Of a DNA stretch of 64,000 bases, positions 5,656 through 62,340 are shown in pieces. Position 1 is the stretch's first letter. Every line of letters starts with the position of its first letter. The notes beneath the pieces are model-generated. The model worked only from the letters and a program-made list of their open reading frames with translations, ran no database searches and had not been told where the DNA came from. This DNA comes from a virus: positions 32,001 to 96,000 of IMG/VR virus record IMGVR_UViG_3300035670_000022; one strand, given 5' to 3'. The translations under genes were made by a program, and so were the position numbers.

Positions 5656-5669
5656 TACTCTTCTCTGTT
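5656..5669 (-). promoter_or_regulatory. Putative phage promoter AACAGAGAAGAGTA
   Basis: Exact copy of the recurrent motif, about 22 nt upstream of the ATG at 5633. Confidence 0.75.
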
Positions 5670-5771
5670 TTGTCTAAACACAGTATTGCCCATAGAAGAG
5701 AGAATGTATTCGCTGATAGCACAGCGAACTATGCCAAGCTAGGCTTAGGTTCCAAGCAGCGGCAATAGCGA

Positions 5772-6314
5772 ATGTTTAGAAATCCAATTCCCCAACCTAA
5801 CGGTTTGGAGCTGGTCTACAAAGGAGAGTTCGAGCAGGATCCAGCGTCTGATTTTGTCGTCGACTTTGTTGATAAGCATAACCACAACATGGAGCATCTC
5901 GATAATGCTCTAGGGGACATCGCTGTTTTGAGAGCAGAGATGGCAATACTCGCTGCTCGGGGGTTGTTAAGTGGCTTCGTTAATGGCGGGTTAGCTGGAA
6001 CACCGCCTTCTGTAGAGGAAGAAAATCCGTTGAGTATTTCAAAGATGTATGTCACGCCGATTACTTACAAGGATACGTTGCCGGTTTTATCAGATGGCGA
6101 CTCAGACCCTGGGCTGCCTTCCGATCCCTGTCGCTCTTCTGTTAATCCTTATATGGTTCTTTATGGTGGCATAGACCCACCTCATTTACAGTTTGAAGAC
6201 CTAGACACTTCTAGTGATCCAGAAGACCCGTGTCCACATGGAGATGACTTTGCTGATCCTAATGACCAACCTGTTGAGGATGAAGGACATAATCCGGATG
6301 GGGGTGTTTACTAA
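5772..6314 (+). CDS. Hypothetical acidic/Pro-rich protein, probably structural
   Basis: 180-aa ORF heading the tail gene block. Confidence 0.65.
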   Translation: MFRNPIPQPNGLELVYKGEFEQDPASDFVVDFVDKHNHNMEHLDNALGDIAVLRAEMAILAARGLLSGFVNGGLAGTPPSVEEENPLSISKMYVTPITYKDTLPVLSDGDSDPGLPSDPCRSSVNPYMVLYGGIDPPHLQFEDLDTSSDPEDPCPHGDDFADPNDQPVEDEGHNPDGGVY

Positions 6315-6381
6315 TAGGTTGATAAAGACGTAGTCAGAATAGTGCGACACTTGATTTAGATTTCAAATCCGTTTTTGCGAT

Positions 6382-9300
6382 ATGAACTGCCCTACAGGAT
6401 TTCTTTGGTATCAGAAAGAAGAGAATCGGTTCCTTCTTAACGAGTCACAAACGCCAGATGGCTGGGCGCCTCTACCAGTCTCTGTTCATCCTAAGGACTT
6501 GAGTAAGGAAGATTTAGAGGCGTTAGCGGAGTCTATCAGCCGAGGAAGTCAATATACTATCCACGTTGACAAGAATTGTCCGTACGCTTCAGACGCTAAG
6601 GACAATAGAGGCAACTCTAGGTTTAGACCTTTTCGCTCTATTGAGCGGGCTTTAATAGAAGCGGCGCGGCGATCGTTCGTCGTCGGTAACACTGCTTCTG
6701 GTGGAGCGGATATAACCCAACGAATTTCTATTCATGTAGCTGCTGGAGAATATGAAGTTGAGAATGGCTACGGCGGACAAATATTTCAATCTGACTTTGA
6801 TCAACGCCAGGACGCAGCGAAGCTGTTAATTGCTAACCGCGACTATCTGGTAGAAGTTGCTTACACTTCCTATCAATCTGACCCGTTGTTTGCCCAAGTG
6901 TTGACAGAGGCTGAAGTGCTAGCCTGCAAGCGGGATTTAAGCTTCTTTGTTGATGCAGTCGCTAAAGACATTGCCGACACTGGCAACTTCTTTATGGTTC
7001 AGGCGGCTCGGACTCTTTTTACCACGCCGGGTGCGTTCATTCCTGCTTACTCTTCTTCTCCTAAACGGCAGAGTACTTTGGAGGCTATTCGGGTATTAAG
7101 AGAAGTATCTCGAGTTGTTATTAAGAATCAAGCGGAAGAGAGTAAAGGTGGGATTAGACTGCGGCATATCACTCCTGACCCGACTTCACTTACGAATCCG
7201 TATCAGGAGATTCAACTAGTCTCAGACAGTCTTTATGACATTCTGATTGATACTTTAAGTGGCTCAGTTGACCCGTTTGCTCTAGAGGTTAATCCAGGAA
7301 GCGATACAGCGAACTTCCCTAATGAGGGAGAGCCTGACGACAGAACACTGCGAGCATACAACAGCGTATACACCCCAGGAATTATTCTTCCTAGAGGTGT
7401 CTCTATTATTGGCTCTGACTTACGTAAAGTCATCATCCGTCCCAAGTATGTGCCTGCGGCCCATGATACGACAGTTGGTCGATCAGCAATCTTTAGGATG
7501 ACTGGCGGGAACTTCATATCTGGGCTCACTATCATGGATAAGAGTGGGCTATCGGAGTCGCATCACAAACTTTCCTGTTTTGAGTTCTGCACTAACGGTG
7601 ATCTTGTTTCCTATTACAACAAGGTTGCTTTAGCCTTCCAAGATAGCTCTAAGTTTAACCGTCTTCAAGATGCTGCTGGCTTGATCAAGGCAAACATCAG
7701 TTGGATTCAGAAGAAGACGTTTAAGTCTTTTGTGGCAGAGACTAGTAATCAGAAGAAATATCTAAACATATTTGAGGCTGAGATACCTGGGTTGTTAGCA
7801 GCTATTGCTATTAACTGCACCAAATTCGGTAACGAAGCAGTCTTAGACTTTGCTGACCGCTTTAAGAGATATCATATCGATCCTATTGAAGATCAGGCTG
7901 CTCTAGACAATGCTTTGGTCTTTTACTCTTCTCTGTTTTCACAGTTAGAGTTATATCTGCGTAAGGCTGTGACTAATGAGGCTAATCCGGCAGAGGGTGG
8001 TTATATCGACGAACGCATTAAAACCGACGCGGCTAGTCCGTCTAACCCATGTCAGGATGTGCAGTCTATTATTAACACCTTTATAGATATCATCCTTAAT
8101 ACTCTTAGAGGGGCAACTATTCCCAGAGTTGGTTTCTTTCCTTGGACGGTATTTGATGTTGGTCCTACGGCTTCTGAAAACCAAATTGTAGGTGCTGCTG
8201 GTCAGAATCCGATTGAAGGCGCTTCTCCTTATGTCTACTCAGTCACCCTCCGCAGCCGCTGGGGGATGTGCGGCATCGATGGGGATGGGAGTATTGTCAC
8301 CGGGCTTAAGTCTTTTCTTGCGGCTCAGTTTACTGTTATCTCGATGCAGTCTGATACTCGGTGTTTCACTGCGCTAGACGTTTTAGGAGAGGTAGAAAAA
8401 CGTTATATAGGGACTCGCGCTGCGGATGCGTCTGACTATCGCCACTTTGGCTATAGAGCGACCAATGGAGCCTACGCGCAGTTGGTTAGTTGCTTCTGTA
8501 TTGCTCCTGCAATCCATTTTTGGACAGCTAGTGGTGGTGAGATGTCCATTACAAATAGCACCAGTAACTTTGGGGATGTAGCTCTCTATGCTGAAGGGTT
8601 CTTAAAGAACGGAGAGGGCGGGGGAGCCTATCCTCAAGACCAGGGACACCGTCTTCTGGGTATTAAGAAGCCTAAGGCAGTTAGCCTCATTGAACGGATT
8701 TTTGTCCTGGGTTATCTAAAAGCAGGGGGCACTACGGTAGACCCTTCTGATAGCGCCAAGGGGACGATTACTATTACAGGCGAGGCTAATACCCACGGTT
8801 ATAACATTACTAACCCTGAGTACCCAACTCGTATTTACGCTCGGGTCTCTGGGGGTGTAGTAGCCGCAGAAGTTATTTCTCACAGTCTTAATTCTAATAA
8901 TGAGACAGTCTTTGAAGTAAAGTATATCGATAACTACGCGCTGAACTGGGTGGCTTCTGAGTACGACGTTAATTACCGTCGTGGATTAATTGGGTCTGCC
9001 ATCTATTTTGAGCGCTATGTCGATGTCCGCAGCTATGAAGATACTCTTTATCATTTAATTATTGAAAAGGCACAATCTTCTACAGAGAAGCGTCGGGAGC
9101 CTGTTTCAAAATACATTTTGCGGCTTTCTAGCGTAGCTAGTGCTCTTGACCAGCCTTTTCGCTCTATGTGGGATCCTACTAGAGGGCGGGCTCCGCTGTA
9201 TTTTATTAATAGTGCGACTGAGACTACTGCGATTCAGCCCTTCGAAGGCAAGACGAACTACGAGTTAACACCTTTATCTGCTTACTCTAATATTGAGCGG

Positions 9301-15086: not shown

Positions 15087-15206
15087 ACAGCTTACTCTTA
15101 CTGGCTGCAGTCGTTGCTTGTCTAATTTCTGAACCGTTTACAATTTGAAGCAGTGGATTCCCCTCCACTGCTTTATTATTTTTTTGTGTCGTTTGGTATT
15201 TCAACT

Positions 15207-16154
15207 ATGAGCAGCTACTACATCACCTCTAAGCGCGATGGATTTGGACAGTATCTTAATGAGATAGGTATGTATCCGACTCTAACTAAAGAGCAGGAGC
15301 AAGAGTACGGCAAGAAAATTCAAAAGATGATGCTTTTTAATAAGCTGCTAGAGTCAATACCTCTAGATAGCGCAGTGCAGCTAAAGGCTCAAGCCTGTGC
15401 GTGCTCTGTGCAGGAGTTTAATCTTGTTTATCGACATGGTGCTATCTCTCGAGACCGGATGTTAAAACACAACCTAAAGCTGGTTGTGCATATTGCTCGT
15501 CGGTATAACAACAGGGGTGTTGATTTGGAGGATCTTGTGCAAGAAGGTAGCGTTGGGCTGATGCGGGCGGTAGAGAAGTTTAACCCAGACCTAGGGTTTA
15601 AGTTTAGTACCTACGCTGGGTGGTGGATAAAACAATCAATTATTCGAGCTATTGCTAATACCTGTCGATCTATTCGTCTTCCTGTTCATATACATGATCT
15701 TCTAAATAAGATTCGTCGAGTTGAGCGGGATTTTTTTCAACAAACAGGAAGGACGCCTAAGTTGTCAGAAGTTGCTGACATCATTGGTGTACCTGCGGGT
15801 AAGATCAGTCGAGTCCAGCAACATTCTAAAAATGTGTGGAGTTTAGATATAGAGAGTTATGACTCAGATGACTCACCTTCGATTGAGGAGTCGTTTGTTA
15901 ATACGGTTGCTACTCAACAAGCTGAATATCTATTTGATATCCAGCATCTTACTGAGTCGATGTTACAGGAGTTGGACGAGTTGGAGCTGGCAGTAATGGT
16001 TCGTCGTTACGGATTAAACACCGGAATTAATCTGTCTTACCAGTCCATAGCTGATGAATTGGGTTTAAATACCCAAACAGTCAGAAAGATCAGTCTTGGC
16101 GCCTTTGAAAAGTTAAAGAACCACGTGGTTCAGTCTGGTATCTCCATGTTCTAA
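15207..16154 (+). CDS. Sigma70-family (RpoD/group 2-like) RNA polymerase sigma factor
   Basis: YLNEIG.YP.LT.EQE, NLKLVVHIARRY, DLVQEG.VGL.RAVEKF.P..GFKFSTYA.WWIKQ, R.IRLPVH. ATG at 15207 preferred over GTG at 15153. Confidence 0.93.
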   Translation: MSSYYITSKRDGFGQYLNEIGMYPTLTKEQEQEYGKKIQKMMLFNKLLESIPLDSAVQLKAQACACSVQEFNLVYRHGAISRDRMLKHNLKLVVHIARRYNNRGVDLEDLVQEGSVGLMRAVEKFNPDLGFKFSTYAGWWIKQSIIRAIANTCRSIRLPVHIHDLLNKIRRVERDFFQQTGRTPKLSEVADIIGVPAGKISRVQQHSKNVWSLDIESYDSDDSPSIEESFVNTVATQQAEYLFDIQHLTESMLQELDELELAVMVRRYGLNTGINLSYQSIADELGLNTQTVRKISLGAFEKLKNHVVQSGISMF

Positions 16155-23111: not shown

Positions 23112-23218
23112 TGTGGAAACAGAGAGTAGTACAAAAGCAAACGACCCAGTTCTCGCCTCTGTTACTCTGGGTTTAGGCGTGCTCACAGCCATACCAAGTC
23201 GAGGCGGGAATAAATAAA

Positions 23219-42314: not shown

Positions 42315-42535
42315 GTTAGACAGGGTAGAGCAGGGCTATTTAGAACCCTAAAGGTTCTTTTTTATTCCCGTTTACTTCTCTCTGTTGTTCGTCTAGGTTG
42401 TTCTAGGTTGTTCTAGGCTTAAGCAGACACGCTCAGGTTGTCTGTCTTTGGGTTTTTAAGGAACGTGGCAACGTACTCCTCTCTGTAAAAAAAGGGGCAT
42501 GCGCCGCTGCATATGCAGGGGCGCATGCCAGCGTC

Positions 42536-43240
42536 CTATTTAGGACGCCGTCCGCTTCCGACCACTTTCGTGGTGGGAGCGGACTTTGCCCCTTTAGGGG
42601 CACCGCCCCCGAAGAGGGCGGAAACGTCCTCTACTGCAACGCAGTCGAGGGCGGCGTGCTCGGAGGGCTCTGCCCCTCCCGAGCCGCAAAAGACTGCATC
42701 ACTGCAGTCGAGGGCTGAGATATACAGCCCGTACTTGCCGCCGGCGGCAAGTTGGAACCGTACGGTTCCTTGCACCCACACAGGGTGCTCCTTTTGCCGA
42801 ACGGCAAAAGACTTCGAGTCTGCTTTAGCCTCGAAGTGATATTTGACCAGTTGGTCAAATATCTCCTCTGCCCCTTCTGGGGCAGAGTCGAACGCCACCT
42901 TGGCGTTCAACGTGAACCATTGGGGTTTACCCCCAAGGTTCGCGTCCTTCTGCGGAAGGACGGATTTTGGGTCGACAGACCCATAATCCACAGCCTTTCC
43001 GTGAAGGCTGATGCACGTAAGTGCAAACGACAGCACGTAAGTGCCGTCGTCGTACAGCGACGCGTCGGTAACGGTAAGCCCGAAGGGCTTCCGTTGACCG
43101 AAGAGATCGGGACCGATCTCTATGCAACTGTGTCCCGTTAGGAGACACAGTTGCATAGGCAGTCCGGAGGACTGCAGGTAGGCAGCGGCTGCTGCTTTGT
43201 CTTCGCCGAAGGTGGAGATAACGGAAGTGACGGTAGTCAT
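42536..43240 (-). CDS. Hypothetical beta-rich protein with basic C-terminal tail
   Basis: 234 aa ending TTKVVGSGRRPK. Confidence 0.75.
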   Translation of the reverse strand: MTTVTSVISTFGEDKAAAAAYLQSSGLPMQLCLLTGHSCIEIGPDLFGQRKPFGLTVTDASLYDDGTYVLSFALTCISLHGKAVDYGSVDPKSVLPQKDANLGGKPQWFTLNAKVAFDSAPEGAEEIFDQLVKYHFEAKADSKSFAVRQKEHPVWVQGTVRFQLAAGGKYGLYISALDCSDAVFCGSGGAEPSEHAALDCVAVEDVSALFGGGAPKGAKSAPTTKVVGSGRRPK

Positions 43241-43277: not shown

Positions 43278-43360
43278 CACTTCTCTCTGTTTCTCCGGAC
43301 CCGAAGGGTCTGGAGACTCTCTCGAAGAGAGAGTTAAGAGTGCTTGCACTCTTCTCTGTT
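43278..43360 (-). promoter_or_regulatory. Tandem pair of putative phage promoters (43278-43291 and 43347-43360)
   Basis: Near-identical 22-nt repeats AACAGAGA(AG/GA)AGTGCAAGCACT. Confidence 0.7.
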
Positions 43361-43452
43361 CCGCTCGTTAGAGCGGCATAGAAGACTTAGGGACCCGCGC
43401 GGAATAGGTAATGAGTTAGCTAGTTAGCGGGGCTAACTAGCAGAGGGTGATA

Positions 43453-46400: not shown

Positions 46401-49400
46401 CAATCAAATCACCATCGCCTACCTCGTATTTCTCTCCGTCTATTTGGAAGATACCGCTCTGGCCGAAGCTGAAAGACACAATAGGAGCATCTACTTCTTC
46501 GTCTTTATCGACGTGAAGGTTCAGCTTCTGTGCGCCTGCATATCGATTAATTAGACAGGTTTGAGCCTCGTACCCATCAAAGATGTCCAGTTGGGCGACT
46601 ATCTTTTCAGCAGTCTCTTTTAGAATGTTAGGCATCTCAACCACAGGCGAACCAGACGGCTGAGTGTTAAGGTATCGACCTTTACCTTTATTCCATACCC
46701 AGAATTGCTGACCAGCACAGGTATAACTGTAGCTCTTGGCTGTAAAGCGCGTCTTCTCACCATCTTCAAAGGTCTCTTCAATGGCTGCTCGTAGCTCATC
46801 ATAGATTCCCTCGTCTTGGCAATAGGATTGCTGAATGTACAGCCCGTCTTCGGTGTATACCGTCAACTCTTCTTTGTCGGACTCGGTGCGAAGCGCGTCT
46901 CGAACTTTCATAAGAAGGACGCCTTGCATGTTCTTACCTTGACGTTTCTTATTCACGCCCCAGAACGTGTCCCAGGGAGAGAGGTGTACAAGGTCGATAT
47001 CTTCTGTTTCTAACAGTTGAGTACGAGCAGGCTCATGGCTGAATTTGCCAAGCAGGACCTCGTACATTACATCGACTTTTACTTGTTCCCAGTCTTTTCG
47101 TAGCCTTACTTTTGCACCTTTAGCCTTTGCCTGTTTACCGTTCATAGCCGCGAACTCTTTAATAAGAGCGTGGCTCGGGTTGAGCACTTTGGCACACTGA
47201 TAGGCTCCCTCTGCTGTTGCATACTCTACGCCTTTGTATGTACAGGGTGCCCCCAGGAAGTTACTAAACTCTTTATACGTAGGCGTATAGGAGTTAAATA
47301 AGATGCAGTCGCCTTCCCAAGTGTCTTTATCTGCCGGATGCTCTTGTTGGGCTTCTACTTCCTGTTGTGCTTTAAGCATAGCCACGTTGATCACAGTGGT
47401 GTTCTTAACACGTTTGATGTTCTTCTTGCTACCAGGAGAAACGCCGTCCCAGATGACGAGACTCTCATCACAGTTACGATGCATCTTTTCATCCCGAGCA
47501 GTGAAGTCACCGTAGACAGCATAGGTTTCAAAGTCACCTACATTGTTGCGGCATCCTTTGCGGGAAGAGTACCAAACGCGCACGTTGGTGACACCTTGCT
47601 CAAAGAGATAGCTTTGTACAAGCATGTCTACACCAGCAGCATCACCAACGTTGAAGTTAAAGCCCTGATCGATATAGCTGTCGATCACATCTAAGGCTTC
47701 TTCAGGTAGACGTTTGATAGAACGGCTGCCAGAGATCACCACTTGGGTGTGATTTACCTCTAACTCTTCCGTAGACGTATCCTCTTCAGTGTCAGAAGAG
47801 TCAACAGATTCACCGCCGTCTCCATCGTCGTTAGGCTCATCGTCGGTCGGCTCTACACCGCCGTCAGAGTCATCTTCATCAGAGTCGTCTTCTTCTTCTT
47901 CGGTAATACCATCGTTAAAGTTATGGATCACAGAGAAGAAGTTGTCTTTACTCTCTTCGACAGAGTGGATCTCTTTCAAGAAGAAGTTTAGGTCGGCATC
48001 AGACCACTCGAGAGTGCTGATTTGAGTGTAGTCGTACATCTCTTTACCGAGAACTTCGTCTAGCTGAGAGAGAGACATTAGCGGAACGTTGGTTTGAAGC
48101 ACTTTAGCCCCTGTGGGGTGAGACTTAAGTGCGTTTAGCCACGCTATACTTTCTTGATAGATGACAGTATCCCCAAAGTAGAAGTTACCGCGGCCACCTT
48201 GGAAGATCGTATAAAGCAAGTAGGAAATCCCGTAGGTGGGGGTCTCTTTACCTCGCTTAACTACGTAATAGTCTTGCAGGAGGTGCATAGCAATTGTTAC
48301 CTCTTCCGCTAATTCGCAGTTAGCGCCGAGTTCAGCCAACGTTTCTTCTACTTTGTCCTCTAGGGCACGCTCTAAACGCATTTCTCCCAGCAGGGTTTCT
48401 AGAACTGTGCAGTTAGCAACAGCAACCTCATCGGTAACATTGCATTCTCGCAGGTTCAGAACCATGAGGTCGATCGTCTTGGTGCGAGGCATATCCAGAC
48501 GGGTGCTACGTAGACGATCATAGGCTTCTGCTACATCAAAGCGAATAAACTCGTCATCCCAGTTGGATAGGATTCCATGTAGCTCTTGAGTAACTTCAGC
48601 ATTGGCAAAGTCTTTAATCTTAACGGACTGTTTGCTGCAGCCGTCGTAGATAGATTTACCAAACATGATCGGCTTTAAGAATCGTTCCCAGAGAGATACA
48701 CCGCCGGGGCTGAATCCGCCGAGCATAATCTCGTACACTTCTGCCAAGACCAGCATGAGTTTGTTGATCTGAGTTTGACGATACTTGTCTAGCTCTAAAG
48801 GCACGAATGCACTTAGACCTTCAACACCGTCTTCACCAAACAAGTCCAACTTATCTAACTCGCCGATGATGCTAACCGCAAGCATACCGAGCATGTATGC
48901 AGCGTACATAACACCAACACCGACGTGCTGAATGCTGTATGCCAGGAAGTTGTATTTGACTAGATCTGAGCTGTTGATCATAGCCTTCTCTGGCAGTGCT
49001 TCTGCTAACTTGTTGATAACTACAGATGCATCTTTGTAAGACTTGATGGTGTAGTGGTCAGCAGCGTAATCCCCGCATGTGGGAGAGAACATGTCCATAC
49101 CTATAGCAGCGGAGCGCAGTTCACGAACCTTTTCATAGGTGGTGATGTGCTTAAGGCTCAGGTGCTTACAGTGAGTGATAAAGTGGTTATCACCATCATC
49201 GTCACCACCGTCTAGGTTGACAGACATAGCACTGACGCCGAATTGTACGGGGCTAATCTCGTACGCAAGAAGAGTATTGTCTTGAACCTCATCAGCAAAA
49301 GGTACACGTCGTTGTCCAAGATAGACCTCGACAGTTTCTTTACCGGTTTCGGTCTCGACTTCAACTTTCTCCCATACCTCTTCGATTAAACGAACCCGTT

Positions 49401-52400
49401 CAATCGGACCCATAGGCATAGGCGCACGGTTACCGCACGTAATTACACCTTCGGCTACAGACTGGCGGTCTAGAGGAATACCGCTACGTAGACACTCTTG
49501 ATATGGAGAGGAGACGACGTTGGTTTCTAGAATCCAGACTTCTCCTACAGGAATAGCAGGGTGACCGATACGCTTCGCACCGACTGCTTTATCGCCAGAG
49601 AAATACTTGCGGGAGTTCTTAGATGTAGCTAGAGAGTTAAGCACACCGCCGACCTGGTTAAGGGCGATCTGTTGCTTTTCGCTACCACCATTGATACACG
49701 GGATAAGTATTTCGAAGAAGAACATGGAGACGAAGTCCAAGTTATCATCGCTCTTGCGAGTCAGCTTAGAAAAAGCCAGCATGGCAGGGAGCCACATGGA
49801 CACTTTACCTTCTCCGGTTTCAAAGACGAAGACCATATCCTGAGTTGCTTCGGCAACCAGGCGGAAGAGGTTGTCTTGATGCGGATCAATCTGTCCAGGC
49901 TCAATACCGACTTTGCGTAGACGCTCATCCATAAGATCCTGACACTCGTTGCTGGTGTCATCTCCACCAAAGCAGATGCCTTCTTCATCAACGATGATGG
50001 ACACTACTTTGAGATTAGGATTAATGGTATTCCCAGCATTGAACGCGGCTAGCGCTTTAGCACGGTACAGCGCTTCTTTACCGCAGGACACCATACGACG
50101 CTGCTCAGCCAATACATCTTCGTCGTCCCCAGCTACAATGCTCAAGGACATGATATAAGGCAACAACTGAACGGAGGTCGTTACGGCTTCTGCTACCGTA
50201 GAAGACTCGAATAGCTCTACGTTGTAGAGTTGAGCTTCAGGTACGGAGAGGTACATTACGCCACGTTGTGCGACTTCTACCACTTTTCCGTCTTTAAGAA
50301 CAAAGGCGAGAATGTTGCTTTCCCACTCAATTTCTTTCTGCTCAGAGACTACGTAGAGGTTATCTCCTAAGTTGGCTAATTCAGGTAGGTACTCTAAATA
50401 GTTCTCTACGTGATACCACGCTGCCTTCCGTGCTTTTTCGTTCTCTTCGGTGTCAGGAAGTAATCCGGCGGCTACTTTCTCTTGGTAGAGGTCATACATA
50501 ACACGACCCATACCTTCAGCCTGTATCCAGTGAAGCCAGCGGGCTTGACCGAAGATGCTGTCGAAGTACTTATACATCTCATCATAGATACCAGCAGCAA
50601 CAGCAGCGGGCTCGATGATAAGCACGGGTTTGCCGTCGACCAGATTCTCGTGTCCTACCAACTGACGGTTGATGTCAGAGATATATTCACGAAGGGTCTT
50701 AACCACGTCTGTTTCTACTTCGTTGTAGAACGCAGTGTTGGCAATTATGAAGCACATCGCATAGCCCAAGTCGAGCTTAAGGCTATCTTGCAGGTGTAGT
50801 CCGTGTACAGTGATCTCGTCCGAGTTAAGGTCAGAGTTTAGATCATTGAACAAGATAGCAGGCGTAGCCGTAAAGAACTGCGACTTGTTAACACTACGAG
50901 ACTTCATATCAAACTCGCGGCGTTTGATGAAGTACTCGATGCTGAGATACTCAGTGCTGTTATCCATACCGACAACAACGCGCCAGCGGAAGTAGGTTAA
51001 CTGACCCTCTACACGGTGTTGATGGTAGATGGGAATCGTTCCGTGTACGCCGAAGAGGATCTCTTTACCTGTTCCGTTAACGAGCACCTCATCTTGCGGA
51101 GTGACATACATCCAGCCGTCTTCGCTCTCTACACTGTCCCAGGTGTTTTCGATCACACCGGTAACATTAGTTTGAGTAAAGTCGAACGGAGAACCGTCTA
51201 CTATATCAAACGTGTTACGGACAATTAGAATGCGTTGATCCGGGTTTGCTTCCGGTTTGTCTTTCTGTTCACCCAAGAACGCGGACATACCAGGCAGGTT
51301 AACGTGGCTCGGCGCATAGGCAGTCTTATCTAACCAGCCGTAGGTGGCATACTTCTGGTCGATAAGTTTAGCCGCAGAAGGCTGCTCGTCTTTGACGCTC
51401 TCAGCTTGAGCCATCCACAAAGACACCCGCTTCAGGAGTTTCTTCGCCTTCAACGAGTTGACGATTACTTTTCCTGCTTCGATTTCGCAGCCAAAGTTGC
51501 TGACGATCTTAGCGAACAGGTTCGGTGCATGCTTGCTGACCAAGTCTAGATTGACGTGACCCAAGGCACCAGCAACAAACTGTCCTTTGGTGTGGTGGAA
51601 GTCTAACCCATACTGCTCATGGGCCATTTCCATCACAATGTCCATCACTTCAGCAATTTCGATAGAGTCATCAAAGACAGCTGCAGTTTCGATCATTTGA
51701 AACTCTTCGTCTATGTCTGCCTCTACACCGCTGTAGCGTTCAGGTAGGACTTTAGCAGCCTTACCCTCTAGAGCAACCCACTTCCCATTACTGTTCAGCG
51801 GTGTGCGCTCTTTGAACATCACGGTGGAGAAGGTGTTGATGAGCAAGTGGTGTGCAGCACCGTTTTGGTCTAACACTCGGTCCGTAGTCATCTTAAAGAT
51901 GTTGCCCATCTTTTGCAGACATGACTTCACATTCTCTAATGTGGTAGAGAAAATGCCGGCGCTGCCAGACCAGTTAGAGAGGATAGGCAAGTACACGAGC
52001 CAGATGAAGTACATAAACATACTCAGGCTGGTGACTAACTTGATTTCTACCTCGTAGGGGCTGCCCTTAGGATCGGCTTTCTTCTCTTCTTTTGTCTTTT
52101 TACGTCCGTTGACAACAAGACAGCTATTGAAAGCACGACCACGCCAGTCATAGACAGTACCGTCGTCATCGAAGTAGAAAGCAGCAGCGCCGTCTATCTT
52201 AAGCGCTTTCATGCCATCTATCTCTACGAAGTCCAAGACTCCTTTGATATCGACAGCCTTACGGTTACGGCTCCGCTTTGTCTTCTTACCAGCGACTTCC
52301 ATCATGTCTTGAATGATGGTGATAACACCTTCAATCTCAGACAGTTGCCAGTCGTAGTCTAAGATTGGCATGTCGATGGTTGAGCAGGCATACTTGTCCC

Positions 52401-55400
52401 GCTCAGAGCAGAACCCACGTAAGTAGTAGGCTACTGCGTAAGCAGCTTTTTGAGCAGCACTACATTTCGTAGGGGGCTCTTGTCCCCGGAACAGCTCTTC
52501 AAAGACTGCCGTTTCGTTCAGCATCATGTCGTTTACGACTTCTTCTACTGTATAGAAGTCCTCGCTACGATTTCCGCTGGTCGGGTGATTTAACGCCTCG
52601 TACAGACTTTGTAGCTCTTCAGCGTAACCAGCTAGAACTTTGGGTTCTGCTTTAGCCGCAGGAGGTGTCGGAGGAGTAGAAGTGACAGGAGGAGTAGCGG
52701 GCGGAGCAGCTATTTTAGAAGGAGTAGAAGTAGCTACTTTAGAAGGAGTAGACTTTGTCACTTCCGCTTTAGACTTCACGCGACGACGACCACTCTTAGG
52801 TAGAGAAGTAGTAGTCTTAGCAGAGCGCTCTAAGAACGTGAAGTAGTTGTTATCGCTCCGGGGAGTTTCGAAGTCGATTAACTCTTCTACTACATCGCAC
52901 GGAACGAAGTAGGCTTCAATCCGGTCGCAGTACGGACGGTATTGTCCTTGACTGAGAACACCGTTCTCGTCTGGACGACGATTATCCGTCAGAATATCTA
53001 CTCGTCCGACGAGAAGCAAATAGTATTGCTCCACTTCTAACCCAGGGATGCCTCCATGTTCGCTCTGCAGGTTATCTAACGAGTTGTGGACAACGATCGT
53101 TTGCCCATGTTTTTCTAGAGCGGAAACAAACCGTGTATTTCCTGTGTACACGGCTTTACGGATGATGTTCCGAACGGAAGAAGCGGTAGCGCCTGCTTCC
53201 GCACGACCTGCGACTTTGTCTTTAAGGTCGTGCTCGTTATTAACCAACGACTCGAAGTTCATATGGTGCGACACCTTGTCGTTAAACACCACATTTTCGA
53301 TGTTGGTGTAGGCAGCATCGCGGAACTGCCAACTTGCCTTCTTGGCGTTGGCGATCGGAGCATACAAACGAGCCGGGGTCGCTCCGATAGTAGAAGCAGT
53401 CCAACCTTCTTTAGCTTCTTGTTTGTAGTCGAAGCCTAAGAAGTTGCTGATGGGCAGCACCCGATGTTTGCTGTCGTCCGCCGCAGCATATAACTCGGCA
53501 TAGTGCGGTTTTGCTTTCGGCACAGGGTTAAAGTGTGCGTTAGCGTTACACCGCTGCTCTCCGTAGCGACAGAGGACTACATAGAGAGGATCGCTCTCTT
53601 GAATGGGAGCTGCGTCTACGTGCATTAATGTGAACGCAGGGATGCAACCCATCTCTTCAGGAGACTTAGTAAAGTGCATAGGAGCACCTACTTTTATCTC
53701 CATGTTTTTGTTTGCGCTATTACTGGTGCGACGCTTCATTGTTTGCTCCTTATTAATGGTAGCCAGTCCTATTTCTAGGGGTGTTACGCCTAGTTCGCTG
53801 ACAATGTCAGACCATTTAGATCCGTTTGTCAGCAAGGACCGAATGTTGCTTGCTGTCTCAGCGTCTACCAAGTCAGCTGGGTCAAAATGACCAGCACGGT
53901 AGACCTCCAGCAAATAGCTGGCGACAGTATCATCCTTGGTCTCACTCTTCGCCTCCTTACGGTAGGTAGATGCCAAGTCTGCTAGCATGTCCTCTAGCTT
54001 TTCTTCTGTTTTCAAGACACGTGTCCAGATGTCAATCACGATCTTGTGACGATGACTTAGCTGATTTTGTTCAGCTTTTGGTTTTTCTGTCTTTTTACTC
54101 TTCTCTGTTTTTGCTACAGGCTGTTTGTTAGGCACCCCGTAGTTGAGAGCCACTTCTAGGGAAGTAACTCCCAATTCCGTCTCTAGGTCTTTATAGGCCA
54201 CTCCTTCTGCCTTCAGATCTTGAATCTGCTCGTGTATCTCTGTAGATACATAGGCAGAGCAGTCTACCAACCCAGCGTCGTATGCTTTCTTTAGATACCC
54301 GACGATGGTTGAGTATGCCGCCTCACTTTTGTTAATTGCTCGGTAGCGTCGGACTAAGGAGTCCAACTTCTGCTGCAGATCGACGTTTTTAGCGTCTATC
54401 TTCTCCCACAGTTCAGCTATCTGCTGAATTGATGATGGAGTTTTCTGTGCGGACGTGGTCGGAGTTCCTCGTTTTTTGGCATACTTACTCATTGGACGCG
54501 GAGTTTTGCTCCGCTTGAAGACCATAGTTGCCTCCGGTACACCCTCTGCCGATGCAGCACATCGTGCCTCGGCGAGAGCCATAAACTCGGCCGGTACGGC
54601 CACGGGTTCAGATTCTGAACCGTTCAGAATCTCAGCCATGATGGCTGTCCCTGCGGCGTAGGCGGCTTCTGCCTTTTGTTCTTCCGTCTTATTGGCTAGG
54701 TAGACGGTTTTGTCTACCTTTTTGATGTTGCCAATCATCTTCCGACCTTCCGCCGCCCGGCGACGGTTTTGGATAGCGAGAGGCAACTCCGCCTCCTCTT
54801 GGGCGCGAAGGGCCCGTTGGCGACGGACTACAGAAGCCGGGATGGGGGCCTCGGTGCCGTTCGCCAACCAAATGGCGTTGTTACCTGCACGGAGGGCAGC
54901 GGACTTAGCGGCTTTGGTGATGACCGCATACTTAGCCGCCCGCTCGGATGCAATGTAAGCAGCCAGGAGTTTAGCCTCCGCCCGACGTTGGGCTTTGGCT
55001 AGTTGCTTCTCATACCCGGACTTAGTCTGGGGTTTGAGGTTACGGCGTTGTACCGCTTTGTTGCGACGTTGACGTTTAACCCGCTGGGTGCGGGCAATTG
55101 ATTGATTCACAGTCATTGATTTACGGACACGACGACGTGCCCGGGTAGAGGTGGTACCAACAGTGGTAGCGATGTCGGCAATGACATCAGCTACGGCGAC
55201 CATTACGGTCACGTTGGCATAGGCAAAAGTGCCCACACCGCCTGCACGTTTTTGTGCAGTGCCTTTGCGGGGGGCAGTGAGACGGAGAACCGCGTCCAAG
55301 GTGAATGCGGCACGGTTAGCCGTGCGGCGCTCAGTGTAGTGAGCAGAGATGACATCAGAGATGTCATTGGCTACGGCACCAGCGAATGCCATAGTAGCAG

Positions 55401-56001
55401 CGGTAGTGAGGGTAGCAGGGGCAAAGCGTACAACTTTGTGCGCAGTGTAGACACGGGGAGCACCCGTGGGGGTGCTGACGGTGTGGGTAGGGGCAACCCA
55501 GGAGGGTGCCGGAGTGGTGAATACACCTTTGAATCCGGGGGCAGCTTGCTTAGGAGCAGCTTTGGGAGCCCACACTACACGAGTGTTCCAAGCTGCTGCT
55601 TGGGCTGCCATAGGGTCAGCAACACCCCATCCTTTGATCTCCGCCATGCGGAGGTCAATATCACCAGCAGCGGTGATAGCGTCAGCGGTAGCTACAGCGG
55701 CAGCTACAGAAGAGGAAGCAGGAGCCTTGTAGCCAGTCCAGGTGCGGACTACATCCACCTTCTTGCCTTTCTTCTGCACGTGTACGTGCACTTTCCCGTA
55801 GTAGGAAAGGAACTCTTGGCGGGGTAGGCGGGCACCTACCGCAGAGTTCTTAATTACAGCGCCGGCGTTCCAGCGTTGGCTGGAACGGCTCCAGCTGTTA
55901 GTGTGTACGGTGCGCGGGGAGACCTCACGGACAGCTTGCTGAATCGAGCGAGCGAAGAAAGAGATAACGGAAACGGAAACGGACATTTTGAAGTTAGACA
56001 T
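43453..56001 (-). CDS. 4182-aa polyvalent protein: 2x HTH, putative single-chain two-barrel RNA polymerase, SLOG, NADAR, AlkB-like dioxygenase, DUF4326 and Pif1-like SF1 helicase
   Basis: DMKSRSVNK (~50881-50910), NRAP (49420-49431), GGDDDGD (49189-49209). ISGSR..VGDAAGVD; FSNF..TAEGAYQ..WG..GKNMQG.LLM.VR; LINRY..HVD..HG..RYNVTVR; YIGRP..LVCFCAPLPCHGD; GVGGGGKS, DEVSM, GDPMQF, KSQGLT. Confidence 0.85.
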   Translation of the reverse strand: MSNFKMSVSVSVISFFARSIQQAVREVSPRTVHTNSWSRSSQRWNAGAVIKNSAVGARLPRQEFLSYYGKVHVHVQKKGKKVDVVRTWTGYKAPASSSVAAAVATADAITAAGDIDLRMAEIKGWGVADPMAAQAAAWNTRVVWAPKAAPKQAAPGFKGVFTTPAPSWVAPTHTVSTPTGAPRVYTAHKVVRFAPATLTTAATMAFAGAVANDISDVISAHYTERRTANRAAFTLDAVLRLTAPRKGTAQKRAGGVGTFAYANVTVMVAVADVIADIATTVGTTSTRARRRVRKSMTVNQSIARTQRVKRQRRNKAVQRRNLKPQTKSGYEKQLAKAQRRAEAKLLAAYIASERAAKYAVITKAAKSAALRAGNNAIWLANGTEAPIPASVVRRQRALRAQEEAELPLAIQNRRRAAEGRKMIGNIKKVDKTVYLANKTEEQKAEAAYAAGTAIMAEILNGSESEPVAVPAEFMALAEARCAASAEGVPEATMVFKRSKTPRPMSKYAKKRGTPTTSAQKTPSSIQQIAELWEKIDAKNVDLQQKLDSLVRRYRAINKSEAAYSTIVGYLKKAYDAGLVDCSAYVSTEIHEQIQDLKAEGVAYKDLETELGVTSLEVALNYGVPNKQPVAKTEKSKKTEKPKAEQNQLSHRHKIVIDIWTRVLKTEEKLEDMLADLASTYRKEAKSETKDDTVASYLLEVYRAGHFDPADLVDAETASNIRSLLTNGSKWSDIVSELGVTPLEIGLATINKEQTMKRRTSNSANKNMEIKVGAPMHFTKSPEEMGCIPAFTLMHVDAAPIQESDPLYVVLCRYGEQRCNANAHFNPVPKAKPHYAELYAAADDSKHRVLPISNFLGFDYKQEAKEGWTASTIGATPARLYAPIANAKKASWQFRDAAYTNIENVVFNDKVSHHMNFESLVNNEHDLKDKVAGRAEAGATASSVRNIIRKAVYTGNTRFVSALEKHGQTIVVHNSLDNLQSEHGGIPGLEVEQYYLLLVGRVDILTDNRRPDENGVLSQGQYRPYCDRIEAYFVPCDVVEELIDFETPRSDNNYFTFLERSAKTTTSLPKSGRRRVKSKAEVTKSTPSKVATSTPSKIAAPPATPPVTSTPPTPPAAKAEPKVLAGYAEELQSLYEALNHPTSGNRSEDFYTVEEVVNDMMLNETAVFEELFRGQEPPTKCSAAQKAAYAVAYYLRGFCSERDKYACSTIDMPILDYDWQLSEIEGVITIIQDMMEVAGKKTKRSRNRKAVDIKGVLDFVEIDGMKALKIDGAAAFYFDDDGTVYDWRGRAFNSCLVVNGRKKTKEEKKADPKGSPYEVEIKLVTSLSMFMYFIWLVYLPILSNWSGSAGIFSTTLENVKSCLQKMGNIFKMTTDRVLDQNGAAHHLLINTFSTVMFKERTPLNSNGKWVALEGKAAKVLPERYSGVEADIDEEFQMIETAAVFDDSIEIAEVMDIVMEMAHEQYGLDFHHTKGQFVAGALGHVNLDLVSKHAPNLFAKIVSNFGCEIEAGKVIVNSLKAKKLLKRVSLWMAQAESVKDEQPSAAKLIDQKYATYGWLDKTAYAPSHVNLPGMSAFLGEQKDKPEANPDQRILIVRNTFDIVDGSPFDFTQTNVTGVIENTWDSVESEDGWMYVTPQDEVLVNGTGKEILFGVHGTIPIYHQHRVEGQLTYFRWRVVVGMDNSTEYLSIEYFIKRREFDMKSRSVNKSQFFTATPAILFNDLNSDLNSDEITVHGLHLQDSLKLDLGYAMCFIIANTAFYNEVETDVVKTLREYISDINRQLVGHENLVDGKPVLIIEPAAVAAGIYDEMYKYFDSIFGQARWLHWIQAEGMGRVMYDLYQEKVAAGLLPDTEENEKARKAAWYHVENYLEYLPELANLGDNLYVVSEQKEIEWESNILAFVLKDGKVVEVAQRGVMYLSVPEAQLYNVELFESSTVAEAVTTSVQLLPYIMSLSIVAGDDEDVLAEQRRMVSCGKEALYRAKALAAFNAGNTINPNLKVVSIIVDEEGICFGGDDTSNECQDLMDERLRKVGIEPGQIDPHQDNLFRLVAEATQDMVFVFETGEGKVSMWLPAMLAFSKLTRKSDDNLDFVSMFFFEILIPCINGGSEKQQIALNQVGGVLNSLATSKNSRKYFSGDKAVGAKRIGHPAIPVGEVWILETNVVSSPYQECLRSGIPLDRQSVAEGVITCGNRAPMPMGPIERVRLIEEVWEKVEVETETGKETVEVYLGQRRVPFADEVQDNTLLAYEISPVQFGVSAMSVNLDGGDDDGDNHFITHCKHLSLKHITTYEKVRELRSAAIGMDMFSPTCGDYAADHYTIKSYKDASVVINKLAEALPEKAMINSSDLVKYNFLAYSIQHVGVGVMYAAYMLGMLAVSIIGELDKLDLFGEDGVEGLSAFVPLELDKYRQTQINKLMLVLAEVYEIMLGGFSPGGVSLWERFLKPIMFGKSIYDGCSKQSVKIKDFANAEVTQELHGILSNWDDEFIRFDVAEAYDRLRSTRLDMPRTKTIDLMVLNLRECNVTDEVAVANCTVLETLLGEMRLERALEDKVEETLAELGANCELAEEVTIAMHLLQDYYVVKRGKETPTYGISYLLYTIFQGGRGNFYFGDTVIYQESIAWLNALKSHPTGAKVLQTNVPLMSLSQLDEVLGKEMYDYTQISTLEWSDADLNFFLKEIHSVEESKDNFFSVIHNFNDGITEEEEDDSDEDDSDGGVEPTDDEPNDDGDGGESVDSSDTEEDTSTEELEVNHTQVVISGSRSIKRLPEEALDVIDSYIDQGFNFNVGDAAGVDMLVQSYLFEQGVTNVRVWYSSRKGCRNNVGDFETYAVYGDFTARDEKMHRNCDESLVIWDGVSPGSKKNIKRVKNTTVINVAMLKAQQEVEAQQEHPADKDTWEGDCILFNSYTPTYKEFSNFLGAPCTYKGVEYATAEGAYQCAKVLNPSHALIKEFAAMNGKQAKAKGAKVRLRKDWEQVKVDVMYEVLLGKFSHEPARTQLLETEDIDLVHLSPWDTFWGVNKKRQGKNMQGVLLMKVRDALRTESDKEELTVYTEDGLYIQQSYCQDEGIYDELRAAIEETFEDGEKTRFTAKSYSYTCAGQQFWVWNKGKGRYLNTQPSGSPVVEMPNILKETAEKIVAQLDIFDGYEAQTCLINRYAGAQKLNLHVDKDEEVDAPIVSFSFGQSGIFQIDGEKYEVGDGDLIVFYGNKRYARHGYEGNEGGEGVRYNVTVRMVKPKSDSEPPTSSEGHCTMKVLNIKNGDSVFGEYIGRPGKGKKGSVLANKAVVGKHGTRKECYELYRVWLQEKVDANDSVVLNELARLYAEQKDLVCFCAPLPCHGDLIIEMLNWMVDTNHPALKPVDEAEVEAEVEAEVEADVDSSVSDVYSSLSYSDIKEALKEYRDAGHTVPKLNGKKEDLLAALIELDEAADEQPAVEVTTTPNQPEVIEPTSAAIKAEPMSTPDPGNQVAAMLLMILETVPDMPETLHTKITDLYKSIPVVLVETEKSTSTQDDSFDAAVPETEEDQSTGVYFDDDYEMDDEIPISNFVSLSSVKVVEDKPMTTEDASDVLTAPEESEDQIEDEDTSSDFEMYAPEDEPEDIPLSKAVSLKVETPTPVAEKQKSVEPKTVEVGSVKPVVNSKGKKIVPSLKKVRKHAQKKAKQEETKVQMEIEADRKRKPEALQAAIDAITNVNATIDEESYLPALETMTARQLDVVAEAINGSNIMLTGVGGGGKSYSVEVARHIFDLLKLPYVIVGSTGTSVMNVGGDGTINSMFGLKLGFEKTESKKCSEYEEYHLLKSDVKDSRFFKSAKNYLGKRPLMVIVDEVSMVDNRFLNIIEDAAIEEGINIQWLLVGDPMQFLPVKGSLFFEPVFIKGAKNNVSYGSFVKRRDFVMINLKHNIRADGDKAWVDCLNLLRMDRLQLTGVKGNLIKDRFDASVTTKAPEDAIHIYFNNIGVKRHNSRKTAEMIANGADNKSYRAHVTGKFGDWYLKKAYDGEKQEFVTIFNPIEEEMTFCVDMPVMIRKNIQNGGGALIAANGSTGVVTKLGKNSINVRLDTTKQVITLDYADFEGPKDKSGRPIGTFRQIPAHPCFAMTLMKSQGLTINRPGVLHMYYVSKGKVTAIPAQHKAALYVGPSRFPKADLVYFATDCEFNSELTSEQMWSMLVDSYHTSDIALDWMETQFS
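54096..54109 (-). promoter_or_regulatory. Intragenic copy of the putative phage promoter
   Basis: Exact AACAGAGAAGAGTA inside the giant ORF, upstream of TAAGGAG-N6-ATG at 53739. Confidence 0.55.
54613..54629. promoter_or_regulatory. 17-bp palindrome TTCTGAACnGTTCAGAA, copy 3 (intragenic)
   Basis: Arms extend to 10 bp (54611-54631). Confidence 0.5.
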
Positions 56002-56113
56002 AATAAATGCGCCCCTAATATGGCGCTTTAAGGTTTTTATTTAGACACTTCACTTTTGAGAGGCTGTGAGAACCTACAACGACTAATACGCCTCGTTGCT
56101 GGCAAGACAGCTT

Positions 56114-61223: not shown

Positions 61224-61363
61224 TGACCAACCAATCGACCAGTGACCAACCAATCGACCAGTGACCAACCAACCAATCGACCAGTGACCAACCAACCAAC
61301 CAACCAATCGACCAACCAATCGACCAACCAATCGACCAGTAACCAACTTAGCCAATTAACCAA
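61224..61363. repeat. Tandem repeat of GACCAA(CCAA)nTC(GACCAGT) units
   Basis: About 5-6 imperfect units in a divergent intergenic region. Confidence 0.85.
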
Positions 61364-61459
61364 TACGTATACAGTCAAACAAAAAGCTCTTTCTAGGCGC
61401 CTAGAAAGAGCAGTAATCACCAAGCTATAATGACCGTGTAATTTATTCACCTTTGAAGT

Positions 61460-62251
61460 ATGACACAGTTGACTGTCCCGCAAACTTCTTTGTCTTATGA
61501 AGAGTTAAACGCTTTACTCCGCTTAGAGTTGAAAAAATCAGACAGTGGCTATCTATGTACGGTTAGGGGTCTAGCTCGATTATTAGGGCTTAGTGTTTCT
61601 ACTATCGTAGATTCTAGGAAACAGCAGAATGGTATACCAAGGGGTGTGCTCCGCCGTTTGTTTGAGTGTTCGCCTAGCATTTTGCCAGAATCGCTACAAC
61701 CTATATCAGGCTTTGATTACAGGAGTTCTGCGTTGTTAGGTAAGGCGAACACTCACACATATCTGTTACCTGAAGTTGTTGTTTCAGGTGTAATCAAGTT
61801 TTATGCGTATGATGCGCGTAAGCCAATTCAGCGAGCTAAGCAACTTGATTATATGCTGAGCGCTATAGGTATAAGAGCGTTGTTTGATAGAGTTATGTCT
61901 TCTGAGTCGTCTTCTTTTGCTGTAGCGGCATTAGAGGTGACTTCTCCTGCTACTGAGGATACGCCGTGTGACAAGTTACTTTATCTCATACAGAAGCTAG
62001 AGTCTTTAAGATTTAGGCGAGAAGAGATTGTTTCCATATTTCGTACGAATGGAGTCGTTCAGCAGGAGTCTGGAGGTAATAGTTCCTATCGTGGTGTAGT
62101 GCCACATAAGAAGAAGTGGCGGGCGCAAATTAATGTTAATGGTGCTACTAGAGTCATTGGTGGCTATGATACCGAAGAAGAGGCAGCTAGGGCATATGAT
62201 GCATATGCTAAGGTTTTGTACGGTTCTGCTGCAAAGTTGAATTTTTGTTGA
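61460..62251 (+). CDS. Antirepressor-like DNA-binding protein, paralog B, with C-terminal AP2 domain
   Basis: N-terminal domain as in 56516. SSYRGV...KWRAQI...IG.YDTEEEAARAYD...YG..AKLNF is an AP2 domain. Confidence 0.85.
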   Translation: MTQLTVPQTSLSYEELNALLRLELKKSDSGYLCTVRGLARLLGLSVSTIVDSRKQQNGIPRGVLRRLFECSPSILPESLQPISGFDYRSSALLGKANTHTYLLPEVVVSGVIKFYAYDARKPIQRAKQLDYMLSAIGIRALFDRVMSSESSSFAVAALEVTSPATEDTPCDKLLYLIQKLESLRFRREEIVSIFRTNGVVQQESGGNSSYRGVVPHKKKWRAQINVNGATRVIGGYDTEEEAARAYDAYAKVLYGSAAKLNFC

Positions 62252-62326
62252 TATCTGTTTATTGATTGTTGGTTAGACTTTTACACATCTATGTGTAGAA
62301 GTCTTTTTTTCTTTGTTTTGCGGCTG

Positions 62327-62340
62327 TACTCTTCTCTGTT
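62327..62340 (-). promoter_or_regulatory. Putative phage promoter AACAGAGAAGAGTA pointing leftwards
   Basis: Exact copy, intergenic, antisense to 61460..62251. Confidence 0.6.

Follow-up and report, generated by a model that had tools for sequence, protein, structure and literature searches.

The DNA analysed here, hereafter the window, is a stretch of 64,000 nucleotides (bases 32001-96000) of one 155,913-bp linear IMG/VR virus contig that came from a subsurface metagenome and has an estimated completeness of 88% (CheckV). Family scans identified tail sheath, major head protein and protease genes, which point to a contractile-tailed phage, and a megablast search with a 10 kb query found no near relative among GenBank phages. 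Replication and accessory genes are arranged in minus-strand blocks (genome 0-37.6 kb and 62-94 kb), and the tail-fibre and structural genes in plus-strand blocks. In the window the minus strand carries a gene of 4,182 amino acids (aa), giant gene 1 (43453-56001), whose product is composed of an N-terminal region, a predicted two-barrel RNA polymerase (RNAP) core, and NADAR, 2OG-Fe(II) oxygenase, DUF4326 and superfamily 1 helicase domains. Around and within this gene recurs a short strand-specific motif, a candidate promoter of the phage's own transcription system, which is the subject of this report. Positions are those of the window unless marked as genome positions.

An earlier sequence-only reading of the window had described the motif as a 14-mer, AACAGAGAAGAGTR, at 15 minus-strand positions. 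All 15 bear it: nine copies are exact (5656, 36717, 37842, 40739, 41210, 42301, 43347, 54096 and 62327), three have one mismatch (37897, 38994 and 45492) and three have two (42373, 42474 and 43278); a further exact minus-strand copy, at 7924-7937, had been overlooked. The window contains 19 matches with up to two mismatches, compared to 1.28 ± 1.15 in dinucleotide shuffles, none of 100 of which reached 19. On the whole contig, 26 such matches lie on the minus strand and five on the plus strand, two of the five with at most one mismatch. The full-genome scan that had been proposed as a check was run with a 22-column position weight matrix (PWM; cut-off ≥12 bits, compared with 20 shuffles) and returned 31 sites over 155,913 bp, as against 0-3 in the shuffles. 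In all, 26-28 sites in the genome count as strong, nearly all of them minus-strand, and the motif is the most over-represented word in the genome. High-scoring plus-strand copies exist at genome 7954 (exact, 32.3 bits) and 149180 (23.8 bits), with weaker ones at 55118 and 77845. Outside the window, exact copies at genome 7913 (minus) and 7954 (plus) stand back to back, 27 nt apart, the latter reading antisense into a minus-strand gene, and a further exact antisense copy is found inside a late gene at genome 139812.

Alignment of the copies showed that information content runs on past the 14-mer, so that the conserved block is longer than the 14 bp first given and has the form aA-[14-mer]-[A/C]A[A/G]G, with the full consensus aAACAGAGAAGAGTA[A/C]A[A/G]G. 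The result is a contiguous conserved element of ~18-20 bp, upstream of which (more than 2 nt from the 14-mer) information content is ~0-0.3 bit everywhere. There are two sub-types, ...GTAAAAGA and ...GT(A/G)CA(A/T)G. Searches of IMG/VR gave single chance matches only for the 14-mer and no match for the 18-mer, while the 18-mer had 35 single matches in JGI metagenome contigs, none with a second copy nearby, and no close relative was found in this way.

The placement of the copies is far from random with respect to genes. By a crude gene call, 21 of the 31 PWM sites are located in the 9.5% of the genome left intergenic, and two of the sites called genic fall in doubtful small open reading frames (ORFs). 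For at least 15 sites in the genome a co-oriented start codon follows at a distance of 22-106 nt (typically 22-50 nt); the smallest distances, at independent sites, are 22, 22, 22, 24, 25 and 25 nt. The copies had been said to be mostly intergenic and 20-50 nt ahead of a start codon; the first statement holds across the genome, but only seven of the 16 minus-strand copies in the window (5656, 36717, 37842, 38994, 41210, 42301 and 43278) stand 22-46 nt before a start. Four of the other nine are tandem upstream copies, two lie inside giant gene 1, one is antisense and two precede ORF-poor stretches. A hairpin followed by a T-run is directly upstream of five window copies (37897, 38994, 40739, 41210 and 42474), which bears out the earlier remark that copies often come straight after a terminator, and terminator-like sites are abundant in the surrounding 33-46 kb (30 compared to 11.4 expected).

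The genes that follow the motif include replication genes, as the sequence-only reading had it: the operon of a UvsX-like recombinase and DNA polymerase, a DNA helicase, the clamp loader, dUTPase and an RNase H-like protein, together with many small genes of unknown function. On the minus strand of the window, the exact copy at 5656-5669 is separated by 22 nt from the ATG of a 129-aa gene, the first in the operon leading into the UvsX-like recombinase and DNA polymerase. The exact copy at 36717-36730 is 24 nt before an 86-aa ORF. A tandem pair consists of an upstream member with one mismatch (37897-37910), which has a hairpin and T-run directly ahead, and an exact copy (37842-37855) 46 nt ahead of a 192-aa gene with the RNase H-like (RVT_3) gene behind it. 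At 38994-39007 a copy with one mismatch has a terminator hairpin ahead and is 25 nt before a 72-aa ORF (38750-38968), and the exact copy at 41210-41223, likewise after a terminator, is 22 nt before a 128-aa gene. The exact copy at 42301-42314 (with G at the R position) is 29 nt before a 256-aa gene and has a tandem copy upstream (42373-42386; two mismatches, 25.2 bits); a weak copy at 42474-42487 (two mismatches, 13.9 bits), with a GC-rich terminator hairpin ahead, is functionally doubtful. Directly after giant gene 1 comes another tandem pair, the first copy exact (43347-43360) and located downstream of a box, GGGTCCCTAAGTCT, the second with two mismatches (43278-43291) and 37 nt before a conserved 234-aa gene.

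Two exact copies precede stretches poor in ORFs. The copy at 40739-40752, after a hairpin and T-run, is followed by ~600 nt without a credible minus-strand ORF. The region downstream of it (39700-40738, minus strand) starts with a perfect hairpin and has no Rfam or tRNA match, the Rfam and tRNA scans of the window being empty throughout; because it holds no credible ORF, a non-coding transcript is possible and the region may represent a phage non-coding RNA. The intergenic copy at 62327-62340 is followed by ~840 ORF-poor nt that include an iteron-like tandem array of GGTCGATTGGTTGGT (61226-61340, six exact copies), which may be a replication origin transcribed from the candidate promoter at 62327.

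Two further minus-strand copies are inside giant gene 1 itself. One, exact, is at codon 632 in a low-complexity linker (54096-54109), with an in-frame ATG (codon 755) and an AAGGA Shine-Dalgarno-like sequence 369 nt downstream; the other, with one mismatch, falls at codon 3500, where a linker leads into the Dda/PIF1-like helicase domain (45492-45505). None of the plus-strand structural operons has a strong motif copy. The statement that the motif is essentially absent from the structural block nonetheless fails, because the exact copy at 7924-7937 (minus strand, 33.9 bits) is inside a 2,296-aa tail-fibre gene, in antisense, where it is a candidate antisense promoter. The single two-mismatch copy reported for that block is present on the plus strand (23118-23131, intergenic, 21.9 bits), 87 nt before a structural-block gene; its function is uncertain.

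If the motif is a promoter that is read by a phage enzyme, it would be expected to change with that enzyme between lineages. We compared four relatives, L122, L170, L171 and L116, taken from the ~50 cluster representatives of the giant-1 polymerase region and found via giant protein 1, with which their homologues share 47%, 37%, 38% and 29% identity, respectively. L122 has CACAGAGAAGA-type copies, CACAGAGRA.AGT. The version in L170 is CAACAAAG.ATAA.GAA (14 forward and 1 reverse), that in L171 AACAAAGg.TAAAGGA (strand ratio 7:0) and that in L116 AACAAAGTTAA.AAACTG (6:0). The motifs of these last three are strand-specific, intergenic, built on ACAAAG..TAA and often directly after terminators, and a lineage-specific version ACAAAG.ATAAAG occurs among the relatives. 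With three bases skipped, ACAGAG(AAG)AGTAAAAGA aligns with ACAAAGAATAAAGAA. A different L116 word, TTACTATGTCTA, was ruled out as a promoter relative as it is start-codon context; in L116 the start codons of many genes are embedded in a conserved word, TTACT-ATG-TCT-A, which is an unusual setting.

Positions are conserved along with the motif. Tandem copies follow the giant gene in four lineages, and copy 43278 is in register with copies in L122, L170 and L171; the pair has the invariant box GGGTCCCTAAGTCT on its upstream side and a conserved ~230-aa gene on its downstream side. The 128-aa gene that follows copy 41210 has a 52%-identical orthologue in L171 that is likewise preceded by that contig's own motif. 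In all five lineages the local motif is also found at two equivalent linkers inside the giant gene, one in the N-terminal low-complexity region (codons 632, 680, 438/458, 475 and 151) and one before the helicase (codons 3500, 3423, 2752, 2792 and 2395). The linker peptide differs (TEKS, TEDS, TKNK, TKGK and NKVN), but the DNA matches the intergenic motif of each lineage, a pattern not easily explained without selection on the element itself, as DNA or as RNA. Thus, four contigs that retain the polymerase also have the motif, in versions that diverge together with the enzyme, as would be expected of a promoter that co-evolves with a phage-encoded reader. Two neighbours of the tandem pair are themselves of note. 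The box GGGTCCCTAAGTCT (43383-43396, minus strand) is single-copy, lies just past the stop codon of the giant gene in four lineages and might act as a sequence-specific terminator or be an element of the TAAGCT type (see below). The 234-aa protein (42536-43240, minus strand) matches no known family, and in four lineages its gene comes straight after the giant gene (identities of 35, 27 and 14%). It would be expressed from the tandem pair and may be an accessory factor of the polymerase.

The motif had been called a T7-style contiguous promoter. The element is contiguous, at ~18-20 bp, but the description is wrong as to the enzyme family. A six-frame search of the 155,913-bp, 88% complete contig with PF00940 yielded no candidate, the control being uninformative since the control genomes lack the family, and Pfam and PHROG scans of ORFs ≥440 aa identified tail fibres, sheath, ribonucleotide reductase, helicases and the like but no T7-like RNAP. 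As the T7-like enzyme was not found, the system is not regarded as a member of the T7 class. The further claim, that the motif bears no resemblance to sigma-70 -35/-10 elements, is upheld on several counts. The flat information content upstream of the 14-mer leaves no bipartite -35/-10 arrangement at 16-18 bp; the motif tail, TA[A/C]A[A/G]G, has a G at the T(-7) place and does not fit the TAnnnT -10 hexamer, although a phage sigma factor of changed specificity might still use it; and sigma-70-like sites are not enriched in a consensus scan (13 compared to 15.8 expected). Nor does the motif sequence contain the sigma-54 pattern GG-N10-GC. A contiguous, near-invariant 18-bp element next to the likely start, with neither a -35 partner nor TAnnnT, resembles the promoters of single-polypeptide phage polymerases, unlike those of the sigma-70 family.

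A sigma-type element may be present elsewhere in the genome. TAAGCT(A/G) is found 14-29 nt (in a few cases up to 100 nt) before the start codons of structural and some other genes, at 13412, 13699, 20291, 23975, 26202, 30464, 32399 and 62358 in the window and at genome 3113, 111649, 128054 and 144671. It is present in 11 of 59 motif-free upstream regions, compared to 0.92 expected (p ~2e-9). Judged by sequence, TAAGCT is a candidate late promoter for the phage sigma-70-family factor, which is encoded on the plus strand (15153-16154) and has regions 1.2, 2, 3 and 4. TAAGCT fits TAnnnT, and the sigma factor thus has another possible job.

The sequence-only reading had proposed a giant RNAP as the reader of the motif, and structure prediction bears out the polymerase. 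By sequence or profile, aa 1500-2650 of giant protein 1 have no RNAP match in the PDB, where the only hits are PIF1-type helicases to the C-terminus; the C-terminal part is assigned NADAR, 2OG-Fe(II) oxygenase, DUF4326 and Dda/PIF1-like helicase domains by family scans. An AlphaFold model of aa 1500-2650 built with 21 homologues has a predicted local distance difference test score (pLDDT) of 75 and a predicted template modelling (pTM) score of 0.72. When the PDB was searched with this model in Foldseek, nearly all matches were RNAP beta/Rpb2 and beta' chains, at probabilities as high as 1.00. In VIA-align, QDE-1 superimposed with a Z of 12.2 on model residues 14-947 (388 residues aligned over both barrels, ~11% identity) and Rpb2 with a Z of ~11 over model residues 15-443. 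The best BFVD match was a protein of Microcystis phage MaMV-DC (E 4.5e-12), followed by poxvirus and giant-virus RNAPs, and a PLD-domain protein of Ma-LMM01 was also among the structural matches. The predicted core (~aa 1510-2448; 48658-51474, minus strand) includes an invariant K..R..K, a segment NRAP and GD-D-DGD at aa 2266-2271; GDxDGD, R..P and K..R..K are invariant in 22 homologues. These data indicate that giant protein 1 has, in its modelled fold, a two-barrel RNAP core of the cellular/QDE-1 kind, complete with a DxDGD loop. The family is rare, with ~50 cluster representatives of the polymerase region in 1.8 billion proteins, and tblastn of the core found no match in GenBank phages.

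Taken together, the orientation of the motif along genes, its closeness to starts, its position after terminators, the lack of a -35/-10 and its location ahead of replication and nucleotide-metabolism genes support the view, drawn from sequence, that it behaves as a phage-specific promoter. We consider it likely that it is the promoter of a phage-encoded polymerase. From what is directly observed of the motif, that is, its existence, statistics, placement and lineage conservation, and from the modelled polymerase fold of the giant protein, we infer promoter activity, the start site, the temporal class and the polymerase that reads it. The more specific proposal, that a sigma-independent phage system has aAACAGAGAAGAGTA[A/C]A[A/G]G as its core promoter and the giant 1 RNAP as its likeliest reader, is our leading reading but a tentative one. 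Giant protein 1 is favoured because in every lineage motif copies are concentrated in and near its gene, because the regulon is the replication (or "middle") set, because a second giant protein (giant 2, see below), encoded in the virion module, better fits an injected early enzyme, and because the TAAGCT class is the more natural target of the sigma factor. This pairing of motif and enzyme, to which we would give slightly less than an even chance, thus comes from placement and elimination.

In the mechanism we propose, giant protein 1 would be made by an earlier polymerase, either the host RNAP or the tail-module giant protein. Its core would bind the contiguous ~18-bp element, and RNA would start at or just past the 3' end of the element. 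Some 20 short minus-strand units would be transcribed in this way, each bounded by intrinsic terminators, including those for DNA polymerase, the UvsX-like recombinase, helicase, clamp loader, dUTPase and the RNase H-like protein as well as a Ubl/E2/JAB/E1 operon and small accessory genes. The copies inside the giant gene could yield shorter products, among them a form from near Met755 and possibly the helicase part, and the copies antisense to two late genes could damp early late-gene expression. In its fullest form the scheme is a three-stage relay, in which giant 2 is injected and acts first, giant 1 then reads the AACAGAGAAGAGTA class and sigma-directed host RNAP acts at TAAGCT late promoters, while the internal promoters of giant gene 1, present in all lineages, give a self-amplifying shorter polymerase (from ~Met755) and a helicase product and the antisense copies hold late genes down. 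As a whole this relay is speculative and somewhat unlikely.

Several points weigh against the assignment to giant protein 1. The relatives were found via this protein, so the co-occurrence of motif and polymerase is partly by construction. Giant 1, giant 2 and the sigma factor would all co-vary with the motif, and no co-occurrence contrast separates them; all three are kept in a distant relative, G001 (190 kb, 27% identity), which has giant 1 but in which neither a motif of this family nor a clearly over-represented word of promoter type was found. The template modelling (TM) scores of the fold matches are low (0.15-0.3) because only conserved cores align, and we know of no transcribing RNAP fused to NADAR, AlkB-like and helicase domains. 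Two exact minus-strand copies are inside plus-strand late genes, which a strand-fixed DNA signal would fit equally well. Finally, promoter activity is itself deduced from the DNA; a search for sequencing runs that contain the phage returned DNA runs only (the subsurface metagenome and a few runs with a small share).

The reader could instead be giant 2 (3,989 aa; genome 99630-111599, outside the window), probably a virion-carried, injected two-barrel RNAP, in which case the motif would mark early and not middle genes. Giant 2 has NRQGAPSG and LGDYDGDS 60 residues apart, both invariant in five homologues, and its gene stands beside tail and baseplate genes, while on the contig of a homologue genes for PAAR, portal and capsid proteins are close by. 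Giant 2 also has weak similarity to gp080 of Ma-LMM01, the phage whose PLD-domain protein is among the structural matches of giant 1, and the Thermus phage P23-45 offers a precedent in a tape-measure-fused virion RNAP with its own motif (PMC10770324). In addition, giant gene 1 has no motif before its start and a distinct conserved leader instead, and the order of use is for this reason not readable from the DNA. However, the giant 2 model has a pLDDT of 47.5, unusable for a fold search, and its putative polymerase nature derives from the two short motifs; BLASTP detects no likeness between giants 1 and 2. Moreover, ~25 promoters before replication genes over more than 110 kb are more typical of a non-virion polymerase, and the motif clusters around and inside giant gene 1 and not giant gene 2, within 4 kb of either end of which there is no copy. 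We therefore regard giant 2 as an unlikely reader. The leader of giant gene 1 (56030-56100, minus strand) is non-coding, contains a short hairpin (AACGA...TCGTT) and shares 83% identity with the L122 leader, compared to only 47% between the proteins. It was ruled out as a promoter class, having no second copy in the genome, and may be a regulatory RNA or a promoter for the first-acting polymerase.

Reading by host core RNAP with the phage sigma-70-family factor, with TA[A/C]A[A/G]G as an unusual -10 and the upstream AACAGAGAAGAG as an extended recognition element, is in our judgement quite unlikely. The factor is complete and is encoded also in the distant relative G001, TA and then A-rich bases occur in the motif 4-6 nt from its end, and spacings of at least 22 nt to start codons leave room for a short leader. 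Against this, a factor with region 4 would be expected to have a -35-like element, of which none is conserved at 16-18 bp; most copies have G at the T(-7) place; the near-invariant 12-bp block immediately upstream of the "-10" is unlike known sigma-70-family promoters; and the versions of the relatives keep TAA while varying the rest of the hexamer. A better TAnnnT candidate, TAAGCT, is present ahead of the structural genes.

It is very unlikely that the motif instead binds a phage regulator, whether activating or repressing, or that it works at the RNA level, for instance as a processing site in 5' leaders. Its asymmetry and fixed short distance from start codons would suit either role, and at the two copies behind the giant gene base pairing is possible between the 3' half of the motif and the nucleotides just beyond it (AGAGTG..CACTCT), which is sensible if the motif is transcribed. 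But copies directly after terminators would mostly be absent from RNA made upstream, the cassette that follows the giant gene has a weak consensus RNA structure (-5.5 kcal/mol), no other promoter-like element is conserved nearby, and a site that overlaps -10 to +10 would repress rather than activate. A strand-specific DNA signal unconnected with transcription (nicking, priming or recombination, as in the single-strand interruptions of T5-like phages) is highly improbable, for although 26 matches to the 14-mer with up to two mismatches are on one strand, two exact ones within plus-strand late genes and co-oriented with no gene, such sites would not be expected to show sevenfold intergenic enrichment, a constant short distance to start codons and post-terminator placement, or to include the high-scoring plus-strand copies given above.

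Other features of the contig are recorded here in their own right. A 19-bp perfect palindrome, ATTCTGAACGGTTCAGAAT, has 8-9 copies in the genome (32412, 38155, 54614 and, weakly, 15128 in the window; genome 2268, 16588, 25125 and 123271), several of them intergenic and two 30-40 nt upstream of motif copies; it may be the operator of a dimeric regulator. Intein splicing domains were detected in the ribonucleotide reductase large subunit (L117:13723-16143, which is genome 13723-16143) and in a 747-aa structural-block protein (L121:6430-8673, which is genome 142430-144673). The last 10 kb of the contig, outside the window (genome 145500-155913), contains no long ORF when translated with table 11; its frames are short, start with TTG or GTG and are widely spaced, and this end could be non-coding, recoded or error-rich.

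If our favoured reading is correct, it would define a promoter for an undescribed family of giant single-chain two-barrel RNAPs, an enzyme class that to our knowledge has been characterised so far only in P23-45, crAss-like phages, YonO and jumbo phages. The motif would then supply an 18-bp template for direct in vitro tests of single-chain two-barrel RNAPs. That copies are conserved at linkers of the polymerase gene in five lineages suggests that parts of a multidomain giant protein are expressed from within its gene, which is unusual for phage genes. In practice, the motif allows transcription units to be annotated in related uncultured phages.

Among known systems, promoters of the T7, T3 and SP6 type have a conserved element of ~18-23 bp that abuts the start site and is read by single-subunit (Pol A-like) RNAPs. 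The motif resembles these in being a contiguous asymmetric element with many copies that co-varies between lineages and often follows terminators, but its sequence is unrelated and the candidate polymerases are two-barrel enzymes, no T7-like RNAP gene having been found in the contig. The best structural match of the giant-1 core, QDE-1 of Neurospora/Thielavia (PDB 5FSW, 7Y7R), is likewise a single-chain two-barrel polymerase; however, it is a eukaryotic RNA-silencing enzyme that acts on single-stranded templates without promoters, and the match supports the fold and not promoter function.

The jumbo phages phiKZ and AR9 encode non-canonical multisubunit RNAPs of early (virion) and late (non-virion) classes (PMC4666361, PMC5449584, PMC7598289). 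As proposed for the present phage, these are two-barrel enzymes with short phage-specific motifs near the start and without sigma-70-type -35/-10 recognition. By contrast, they are split into 4-5 subunits, whereas here the beta-like and beta'-like halves are in one chain; their motifs are also shorter, and AR9 requires uracil-containing DNA and a dedicated promoter-recognition subunit.

The Microcystis phages Ma-LMM01 and MaMV-DC (genus Fukuivirus), which encode large uncharacterised proteins, are likewise contractile-tailed, with genomes of ~160-180 kb. MaMV-DC has the protein that matches the giant-1 core structurally, and Ma-LMM01 gp080 (3,562 aa; NC_008562) is weakly similar to giant 2 around DYDGD, the regions of interest in NC_008562 being 57700-68388 and 43811-48832. 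Ma-LMM01 has no match to giant 1 by sequence, no AACARAGNNTAA and no motif of this family. A transcriptome study of Ma-LMM01 reported only host sigma-70-like promoters, predicted with BPROM (PMC5780444). The structural matches suggest that this group, published as wholly dependent on host sigma-70 (PMC5780444), may carry RNAPs of its own.

A direct precedent is provided by the Thermus phage P23-45, which has two two-barrel RNAPs, the virion enzyme gp96 with an AT-rich motif and the non-virion enzyme gp64 with a GC-rich motif (PMC10770324, Chaban et al. 2024). Both phages have two candidate or known single-chain two-barrel RNAPs, one of them in the tail module, and in both the motifs are contiguous, ~15 nt or more in length, upstream of starts (here inferred starts) and shared only with relatives that keep the polymerase. 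They differ in that neither polymerase nor motif shows detectable sequence similarity between the two, in that the core here is within a 4,182-aa chain with NADAR, AlkB-like, DUF4326 and helicase domains in a genome that also encodes a sigma factor, and in that the present system is described from sequence and models. By those features of two-barrel phage RNAP systems that can be examined in sequence, the system described here is of the same kind: a predicted two-barrel polymerase is encoded, and each lineage has its own version of the motif at syntenic places. What is new is the element itself, together with its conservation and its presence within the gene of the polymerase.

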